Positions 33,716 to 33,988 of a DNA stretch of 64,000 bases are shown one piece after another. Source of the DNA: an uncultured Gemmatimonadales bacterium (lineage in GTDB: Bacteria > Gemmatimonadota > Gemmatimonadetes > Longimicrobiales > RSA9); NCBI GenBank assembly GCA_963708135.1, contig OY970192.1, positions 4,384,001 to 4,448,000 of the forward strand, read 5' to 3'. Each line of letters opens with the position of its first letter. Positions within the stretch are counted from its first letter, which is position 1. The position numbers and the translations under genes were made by a program. The notes beneath the pieces were generated by a model. The model made no database searches. It was given only the letters and a program-made list of their open reading frames with translations, and was not told where the DNA came from.

Positions 33716-33738
33716 GTCGCTGCTCCTCGTGGGGGATG

Positions 33739-33776
33739 AAAAAAGCCCGGCCCTCTCGTCGGAGAGAGGGCCGGGC
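33739..33776 (-). terminator. Intrinsic terminator (attenuator) upstream of metY
   Basis: Perfect 13-bp stem GCCCGGCCCTCTC / GAGAGGGCCGGGC, 6-nt loop, followed by U6 on the minus strand, about 23 nt before the metY ATG. Confidence 0.9.
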
Positions 33777-33807
33777 CGGGTCTCGAGCCGCTCGGCTCGA
33801 AATCTCG

Positions 33808-33906
33808 TTACACGCTCGCTATAGGCACGCGTGCACGCCCGTCCGCCTCTCCCACGGGAGAGCCGCACATGCACGTGCACATGACCATGGCCTGACGAGC
33901 GAACAT
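33808..33906 (-). CDS. Putative Met/Cys-rich attenuation leader peptide (32 aa)
   Basis: [32 protein letters not shown]; codons 7-14 contain 3 Met and 3 Cys; lies between the promoter and the terminator. Confidence 0.72.
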
Positions 33907-33958
33907 GTCTGTTCCGCTTCCGGGTTGCCGTTTCCGGGCTGCCTTCGATCGGCCGCGG

Positions 33959-33988
33959 ATGGTAGCAGCGGCGGCCCGCCGCTGTCAA
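33959..33988 (-). promoter_or_regulatory. Sigma70-type promoter of the met leader/operon
   Basis: TTGACA (33988-33983), 18-nt spacer, extended TGc-TACCAT (33964-33959). Confidence 0.7.

Follow-up and report, generated by a model that had tools for sequence, protein, structure and literature searches.

Candidate methionine/cysteine leader-peptide attenuator upstream of the metY-metX-hom operon of a Gemmatimonadota bacterium

Introduction

How might a bacterium of a little-studied phylum adjust its methionine biosynthesis genes to the supply of sulfur amino acids? The question is raised by a stretch of 64,000 nucleotides (nt) from an uncultured Gemmatimonadales bacterium (phylum Gemmatimonadota; contig OY970192.1 of assembly GCA_963708135.1, positions 4,384,001 to 4,448,000), hereafter called the window. 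On its minus strand, a metY-metX-hom operon is preceded by a small open reading frame (ORF; small ORFs are called sORFs below) with a run of methionine (Met) and cysteine (Cys) codons, and then by a transcription terminator. The textbook mechanisms that control methionine genes are S-adenosylmethionine (SAM) riboswitches, T-boxes and MetJ/MetR-type proteins. The classical leader-peptide attenuators are trpL, hisL, thrL, pheL, leuL and the ilv leaders of Escherichia coli and Salmonella; to our knowledge, textbooks present methionine as lacking classical attenuation.

An initial annotation of this DNA had proposed that ribosome stalling on the Met/Cys codons frees an antiterminator. On the basis of sequence comparisons and folding models, we consider it very probable that the element is a ribosome-mediated leader-peptide transcription attenuator of the trp/his type, tuned to sulfur amino acids. 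Conservation, codon-level signs and folds with a masked ribosome site all support the stalling proposal, and the response to amino acid supply is predicted from them.

Results and discussion

Alternative RNA structures upstream of metY

The promoter, the 32-codon leader ORF, the hairpins, the terminator and the metY ribosome-binding site (RBS) succeed one another on the minus strand (Table 1), all of them where the initial annotation had placed them. Codons 7 to 14 of the leader ORF read M-V-M-C-T-C-M-C; hence, six of eight codons specify Met or Cys, three for each. The promoter matches 10 of 12 consensus positions and is the sole promoter-like site between positions 28000 and 37000, where shuffled sequences would yield 0.1. 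Transcription probably starts at about 33952, which would give a 5' untranslated region (UTR) of ~46 nt before the leader ORF. The terminator has a predicted energy of -32.3 kcal/mol and a stem of 13-14 bp depending on the method (14 pairs in the terminator scan, 11 of them G-C). Region 2, the 5' strand of the putative antiterminator, includes the segment GGGAGAGGCGGACGGGC at 33853-33837, a position that had been correctly assigned.

The 245-nt leader is unusually stable for its composition, with -123.3 kcal/mol against -101.75 +/- 4.87 kcal/mol for shuffled sequences (z = -4.43; none of 200 shuffles as stable). In the minimum free energy fold computed with ViennaRNA, the free leader adopts the protector, in which the Met/Cys codons and CUCUCC pair with GGAGAG...GCGUGCACGCGUGCC, together with the terminator. 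We modelled the co-transcriptional situation by cutting the transcript just before the terminator 3' arm, the state at which RNA polymerase must decide, and by masking 31 nt for a ribosome with its A site at a chosen codon. The region 2:3 antiterminator forms in this truncated transcript when the A site is placed at codon 7, 9, 10, 12, 13 or 14, by pairing of GUGGGAGAGGCGGACGGGC (33855-33837) with GCCCGGCCCUCUCUCC..AC (33776-33758). It fails to form when there is no mask or when the A site is moved on to codon 16, codon 20 or the stop codon; region 2 is then bound in the protector or covered. The antiterminator duplex has an energy of -25.3 kcal/mol and begins 11 nt past the last Met/Cys codon; its helix encloses the small spacer hairpin, whose sequence varies among relatives. 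The 1:2/2:3/3:4 layout and the pairings named beforehand are thus those that ViennaRNA finds, and the folding check suggested with them came out as anticipated, masking of codons 7-14 yielding the antiterminator, and no mask or a mask at codon 16 or beyond yielding the protector, with the terminator arm unengaged.

Masking profiles were also computed for 22 leaders. As read visually, pairing of the terminator 5' arm falls by at least three tenths right after the Met/Cys run in 13 of them. In a per-sequence duplex test, the best partner of the terminator 5' arm was sought anywhere from the last Met/Cys codon to the terminator. In 17 of the 22 leaders, this partner begins 6-15 nt past the codon, and the spacing holds across differing arms (CCUCUC/GAGAGG, GUUCACC/GGGUGG and CCUCUUC/GAAGAGG, with a GACCACU arm also found among the subfamilies). 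Cognate duplexes have a mean energy of -20.7 kcal/mol against -17.7 kcal/mol for non-cognate ones.

The protector and the terminator also show covariation. In an alignment of 11 sequences, they are 78.3% paired, and 15 pairs are changed on both sides compared with 8.8 in shuffled alignments, a number that only 1 of 500 shuffles reaches. The terminator stem is near-invariant in sequence among seven close relatives and covaries in more distant ones. Another alignment of leaders, derived with cmsearch, had antisense matches to the palindromic terminator mixed in and was left unused.

Conservation of the leader upstream of metY

Six metY genes were found among 40 relatives at E <= 1e-100. All six are preceded by a Met/Cys sORF, the motif CUCUCC-N3-5-GGGAGAG-RCGGACGGG and the same terminator. 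To widen the sample independently of the element, we used a protein search, which returned 45 metY-type matches, distributed over 41 of 151 phylum genomes (assigned to Gemmatimonadota by their nearest named records). Upstream regions were read for 43 of these matches, the window's own locus and that of genome G097 being left out. Among the 25 loci whose MetY is at least 69% identical, 19 have at least four Met/Cys codons in a stop-free window of 10 codons, two have three and four have two or fewer; those with three are of a Cys type, such as LMCRISPC. Conservation of a Met/Cys-rich sORF with a terminator, which the initial annotation had put forward as a check, was therefore found both in the close relatives and in the phylum sample. 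Of the 18 loci with MetY identities of 61% or less, which represent another class or paralogues, one has at least four such codons.

In three of the four close loci devoid of a leader, all three from one genus, a SAM-II riboswitch (RF00521; 40.5-43.2 bits for a gathering score of 36) replaces the leader. Thus, the leader and a known riboswitch of the methionine pathway swap at the same locus.

Met/Cys-rich sORFs were also seen upstream of metY outside the phylum. In four loci of Chloroflexota metagenome-assembled genomes (MAGs; L076, L077, L078 and L080), sORFs (one ending with ...WIMCMRWRPRRTEDGV at its stop codon, another reading MHCAMCPCMGMPGRPRR...) lie ~130-330 nt upstream and are followed, as judged by eye, by a terminator-like hairpin. 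They may belong to a related or a convergent Met/Cys leader family. Upstream of actinobacterial metY genes, sORFs encode M-C-C-C in Rhodococcus yunnanensis (L137, …FTMCCCLD…) and in Nocardia sp. (L148, …APMCCCQS…); they resemble the mycobacterial polycysteine sORFs.

Codon-level variation in the leader ORF

The variation among leaders indicates that the ORF is read as codons. The order of Met and Cys differs from one leader to another (MMCMCMCQC, LMCMMMCM, MCMCCIMC, MCCRMMLC, CCCLMSCC), and a purely structural AUGUGC repeat would forbid such variation. Between genomes G028 and G034, the difference is one additional in-frame ATG in the former. At two Cys codons, TGC and TGT are swapped between the leaders of G151 and G116, which are otherwise nearly identical. 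In G006, an indel of 1 nt just past the run alters the downstream peptide (GSPSGRGGRG in one version), with the RNA sequence kept. The best windows of the 25 metY leaders total 58 ATG, 44 TGC and 41 TGT codons, and the other two frames contain 0-4 and 0-2 Met/Cys codons per window. As far as sequence comparison can tell, these patterns demonstrate codon-level selection on the leader ORF, and we infer that it is translated.

In one family of the class (leaders of G155, G140, G071, G151, G116 and G148; L171 and L173-L177), a conserved CGA (Arg) codon follows the Cys codons, as MCC-CGA-M/I. Other genera have CGC in its place, and the run of the window leader has no Arg codon. CGA is rare in G+C-rich genomes and slowly decoded; it may aid ribosome stalling in this family.

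Proposed mechanism and points that weigh against it

We propose the following series of events. When charged Met-tRNA and Cys-tRNA are ample, the ribosome would pass codons 7-14, after which region 1, i.e. the Met/Cys codons and CUCUCC, would re-pair with region 2 in the protector. The terminator would then fold, and RNA polymerase would halt before metY. When Met or Cys is scarce, the ribosome would stall on the M-V-M-C-T-C-M-C codons and cover region 1, leaving region 2 free to pair with the emerging 5' arm of the terminator; no terminator would form, and metY-metX-hom would be transcribed. In the absence of translation, the protector and the terminator would both form, and expression would be off. 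The response of read-through to Met and Cys supply, like the kinetic order of folding, is what this model would predict.

Several observations weigh against this mechanism. When the complete leader is folded at equilibrium, the terminator persists at every stall position except A-site codons 11-12. As the terminator is dominant at equilibrium, one has to assume, as is usual for attenuators, that folding kinetics let the antiterminator form first. Nine of the 22 leaders lack a clear step in their masking profiles. The Shine-Dalgarno sequence of the leader ORF is weak (GGAAG, ~12 nt upstream), and a shortage of Met should in addition make initiation on the leader rarer and thereby favour termination. 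Simple (ATGTGC)n-like repeats occur elsewhere in the genome with neither a terminator nor a gene context, and hence Met/Cys runs can arise by slippage. Finally, on fixed alignment columns the antiterminator is 73.5% paired compared with 72.0% for shuffled alignments, 115 of 500 of which score as high, and its covariation there does not exceed that of the shuffles; covarying pairs, whose presence the initial annotation had made a test, were found for the protector and the terminator. The value of 73.5% nevertheless exceeds those of slid controls (43-57%). We regard the per-sequence duplex test, which supports the antiterminator, as more telling than pair counts on fixed columns.

The rarity of such runs was assessed over the host genome, a single contig of 5.45 Mb with 73% G+C. 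In six frames, it contains 14 stop-free windows of eight codons with at least six Met/Cys codons. Five of them have at least two Met and two Cys codons, and two of these five are the metY leader and a second copy of it.

Related leaders in the host genome and its class

The second copy, in sense orientation (G000:C1:5014946-5015091, minus strand; L015/L046), was detected with a covariance model of the leader (E = 2.7e-17) and has its own terminator. Its leader peptide reads ...PMCACCMCM... (LPMCACCMCMRGSPVGE; MNGSHRTPNALPMCACCMCMRGSPVGETGG...). It precedes genes for a RimK-like ATP-grasp protein and an SfnG-like flavin monooxygenase of the luciferase-like monooxygenase (LLM) type (TIGR04021, 259 bits, under the cut-off of 383). 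We take SfnG-type enzymes to be members of sulfur-starvation regulons; the presence of a second Met/Cys leader before this gene pair suggests such a regulon.

Leaders of this kind are also found in other genomes of the class, where Met/Cys leaders precede metY, the same ATP-grasp gene and a gene for a threonine-synthase-like pyridoxal phosphate (PLP) enzyme, which we presume may be MetM-like. A Cys-rich leader, MCCAMCCC, precedes a phosphoadenosine phosphosulfate (PAPS) reductase gene; leaders whose run has Cys alone lie before a rhodanese gene and a porin-like gene, and leaders whose run has Met alone (MRMSMR..., MRMMRAIALMRAM) before hom and aspartate kinase genes. The codon content of the leaders thus appears to track the function of the gene controlled, being mixed before metY and Met-only before hom and aspartate kinase. 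Many other matches to the covariance model are gene-end terminators and were not counted (L025, L026, L030, L034, L036, L039, L055, L057, L061, L062, L064-L066 and L073).

At four loci, a SAM-II riboswitch (37.8-52 bits against 36) immediately precedes a leader of the Met or Met/Cys kind, forming a riboswitch-attenuator tandem (Table 1). With a true SAM-II aptamer next to it, the leader must be a separate sensor. We did not find a tandem of a SAM-II riboswitch and a leader-peptide attenuator in the published literature searched. In the host genome, a SAM-II-like element below threshold (31.7 bits against 36) and a terminator-like hairpin lie just upstream of metK (G000:C1:3453231-3453308, minus strand; L216).

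We also scanned 73 strong terminator-like sites of the host genome for further leaders. Three of the same design were found, encoding MRAKRIRTTTTTTR (T6) before thrS, ...QHGHHAHHHH... before hisG and ...RFYAYYFSY... before the gene of 3-deoxy-D-arabino-heptulosonate 7-phosphate (DAHP) synthase. All three come with a TTGAC-type promoter and a T7 terminator. In the his and aro cases, the ORF begins just 7-8 nt past the -10 box and may be leaderless. A His-rich window at C1:3377087 is inside a long ORF and was discarded. Thus, this lineage routinely uses classical, trp-style attenuation, and the codon run of each Thr, His or Phe/Tyr leader matches its own gene.

Altogether, a family of Met/Cys leaders appears to define a sulfur regulon in this phylum. 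We lean, by a small degree only, towards a broader proposal, namely that such leaders are the main sulfur-amino-acid sensor of the whole class, with similar ones in Chloroflexota and other phyla. They would act regulon-wide, with a codon mix tuned to each gene, interchangeably with SAM-II in some genomes and in series behind it in others, and would be undescribed for methionine. If this is true, SAM-II in series with a leader would be a natural two-input gate, responding to low SAM and low charged tRNA.

Alternative explanations

The attenuator might sense one amino acid only, either Cys, whose supply would report on sulfur assimilation, or Met, the end product. The other codon would then be kept mainly because AUG/UGC repeats pair with a protector 3' strand of the GCACGUGC type. 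AUGUGC repeats are indeed partly self-complementary and paired in the protector, Cys-dominated leaders precede metY in some relatives (LMCRISPC, LICRPCPC), and leaders before other genes can be Met-only or Cys-only. However, both codon types are enriched in 19 of the 25 close metY leaders, in a variable order unlike that of a purely structural repeat, and ATGATGATG and TGCTGC blocks interrupt the repeat yet retain the residues. The metabolic context also argues for sensing of both amino acids. MetY makes homocysteine from sulfide, and homocysteine, the product of the operon, is the precursor of methionine. In the host genome, the best cysE match (50 bits) falls short of the NCBIfam cut-off of 210.65; cysK (432 bits) and a gene similar to that of cystathionine beta-synthase (CBS; 501 bits, cut-off 510) are present. 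Homocysteine may thus feed Met and also Cys, which may be derived from it by reverse transsulfuration. We therefore regard a single-amino-acid sensor as unlikely.

Still less probable, in our view, are explanations that do without decoding of the Met/Cys run. A riboswitch for SAM, homocysteine or a similar metabolite, with a terminator as its expression platform and an incidental ORF, would fit the usual control of met genes and the strong conservation of the RNA CUCUCC...GGGAGAGRCGGACGGGCG in close relatives; that conserved core is otherwise explained as a strand mimicking the terminator 3' arm. A comparison with Rfam, which the initial annotation had advised, gave no match at gathering score anywhere in the window. 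When matches were instead reported by E-value, no SAM riboswitch or T-box family matched positions 33500-34200 at E <= 10, and no family thus explains the leader region. The matches obtained there (small RNAs, microRNAs and one cis-regulatory element, among them Pseudomon-1, GadY and atoC) do not exceed 21 bits (at most 20.8), far under gathering score, and are attributed to chance. The codon-level signs of translation, the four loci with a SAM-II aptamer directly upstream of the leader and the host genome's similarly built leaders for His, Thr and Phe/Tyr all run counter to a riboswitch, which we deem highly improbable. To an equally low degree, we can envisage that the sORF encodes a functional Cys-rich peptide or that the terminated leader is a trans-acting small RNA, the terminator merely ending a small gene or the upstream DUF5924 gene. 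Trans-acting small RNAs and peptides derived from an attenuator are known for Sinorhizobium trpL, according to the portion of the source available. Yet the peptide frame past the run is not conserved, as shown by G006, and the promoter separates the leader from the DUF5924 gene. From genome to genome, the element stays with metY and the upstream gene changes; in G034, the latter is another ORF, ending with ...NYGHFGKAELPWEQ, presumably the C-terminus of MetK. A peptide or small RNA function would in any case be compatible with a role as an attenuator.

Comparison with known attenuators

The attenuator that we propose shares with the trpL/hisL class the succession of a promoter, a short ORF with a codon run, a 1:2 protector, a 2:3 antiterminator, a 3:4 terminator and the first biosynthetic gene, as well as the same predicted logic for stalling, free running and absence of translation. 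All the sequence-level features of leader-peptide attenuators are present (ORF, codon cluster, terminator, mutually exclusive hairpins, codon placement and conservation). In contrast with that class, the metY leader mixes Met and Cys codons, its host belongs to the Gemmatimonadota, and its ORF crosses region 2 to end ~30 nt before the terminator rather than between regions 1 and 2.

SAM-II (RF00521), which occupies the place of the leader before metY in one genus of the class, is a functional counterpart. It differs in recognising SAM itself through an RNA pseudoknot, for which an ORF is unneeded, and no SAM-II is located upstream of the window leader.

Leaders with Cys codons have been described in other bacteria. 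The mycobacterial polycysteine sORFs, which had been mentioned at the outset as known poly-Cys leaders, are likewise upstream sORFs with consecutive Cys codons; according to the available part of the report, they sense charged tRNA-Cys by stalling and control sulfur-related genes (Canestrari et al., bioRxiv 10.1101/834739). The parallel stops there. As described in the same part, they are leaderless and operate by translational attenuation through sequestration of the Shine-Dalgarno sequence, not by termination, whereas the metY leader has a probable 5' UTR, a strong terminator and mixed Met/Cys codons, and falls outside that class. The uORFC-8-2 motif, a predicted ribosome-mediated attenuator before cysS in Rhodobacterales, resembles the metY leader, as far as the available text goes, by its conserved Cys codons (UGC, sometimes UGU) and its terminator, a stem followed by a run of U (Brewer et al. 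2021, PMC8632094). In that account, it comprises two tandem Cys codons only and belongs to a tRNA synthetase gene of Alphaproteobacteria; no sequence relation between the two was detected with Rfam in the window. Candidate Cys leaders of Actinobacteria, in which small ORFs carrying Cys runs precede cys or cbs operons, are reported without terminator hairpins, and in the accessible portion of that study no conserved RNA structure was found before methionine operons (Seliverstov et al. 2005, PMC1262725). No Met leader appears in the list of Naville and Gautheret, in the part of their paper available (PMC2965389).

In the full-text literature searched, which does not cover subscription journals, we found no terminator-type attenuator for Met or for Met and Cys, in agreement with the initial annotation, to which no characterised mixed one was known. 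Thus, the mechanism is classical, and its use for methionine genes appears undescribed. A conserved Met/Cys attenuator would fill the methionine gap in classical attenuation, and Met/Cys leaders would offer a simple means of annotating the sulfur and methionine regulons of soil phyla that have been little studied. The family would flag the ATP-grasp/SfnG-like gene pair and the threonine-synthase-like gene as sulfur-regulated. It would also provide natural cases of a riboswitch and an attenuator that substitute for each other or act in tandem.

Operon genes, coordinates and other observations

The three genes downstream of the leader are closely packed, with overlapping start and stop codons (Table 1). 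The metY RBS falls outside the stable structures of the leader. The MetY protein matches PF01053 (1.5e-140) and TIGR01326 (664 bits, cut-off 495), and its closest named relatives, with 77% and 75% identity, are from Gemmatimonadetes MAGs. The second gene product matches TIGR01392 with 282 bits, under the equivalog cut-off of 500; hence, the name MetX is provisional. The third, Hom, matches PF00742, PF03447 and NF004976 (305 bits, cut-off 205).

Table 1. Positions of the leader parts and operon genes in the window, and of related elements at other loci
Feature	Position	Strand	Remarks
Sigma-70-type promoter	33988-33959	minus	TTGACA 33988-33983, 18-nt spacer, TACCAT 33964-33959
Leader ORF, 32 codons	33906-33808	minus	between promoter and metY ATG (33715)
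Regulatory codons 7-14 (region 1)	33888-33865	minus	AUG GUC AUG UGC ACG UGC AUG UGC
Predicted protector (anti-antiterminator, 1:2)	33892-33824	minus	long imperfect hairpin; Met/Cys codons paired with GCGUGCACGCGUGCC
Protector inner stem	33862-33857 / 33852-33847	minus	CUCUCC / GGAGAG, loop CGUG
Region 2, putative antiterminator 5' strand	33855-33837	minus	GUGGGAGAGGCGGACGGGC; resembles terminator 3' arm
Small spacer hairpin	33801-33782	minus	UUCGAGCCGAGCGGCUCGAG; between leader stop codon and terminator
Intrinsic terminator (3:4), 13-bp stem	33776-33764 / 33757-33745	minus	GCCCGGCCCUCUC / GAGAGGGCCGGGC, loop UCCGAC; whole element with T tract 33777-33739
Terminator T6 tract	33744-33739	minus	
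metY, O-acetylhomoserine sulfhydrylase / homocysteine synthase	33728-32405 including RBS	minus	RBS GAGGAG 33728-33723, ATG 33715
MetX-like homoserine O-acyltransferase	32408-31296	minus	GTG start overlaps metY stop (GTGA)
hom, homoserine dehydrogenase	31299-30013	minus	ATG overlaps metX stop (ATGA)
SAM-II in place of metY leader	L161:329-400 (G136)		coordinates as listed; same class
SAM-II in place of metY leader	L163:369-444 (G166)		coordinates as listed; same class
SAM-II in place of metY leader	L164:357-432 (G105)		coordinates as listed; same class
SAM-II in tandem with leader	L011:1123-1172 (G005)		before metY
SAM-II in tandem with leader	L023:1367-1440 (G067)		before threonine-synthase-like gene
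SAM-II in tandem with leader	L032:1371-1441 (G114)		before hom
SAM-II in tandem with leader	L033:1327-1400 (G061)		before aspartate kinase gene
Thr leader	G000:C1 near 1416315 (L217)	plus	before thrS
His leader	G000:C1 near 5427964 (L218)	minus	before hisG
Phe/Tyr leader	G000:C1 near 3917654 (L219)	minus	before DAHP synthase gene

Other Met/Cys-like windows of the host genome (C1:397602, 473580, 449075 and 5113652) either consist of simple GTGCAT/GTGTGC-type repeats or have neither a terminator nor a gene context, and were not considered as attenuators. The repeats at C1:397602, 449075 and 473580 are intergenic, adjoin CCCGNT-type repeats and are not associated with a terminator or sulfur genes; one of their frames reads MCMC or VCVC. 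Similar periodic translations of low complexity, as judged from ORF translations only, occur in the window at ~38900-39300, upstream of a RecQ-like gene.

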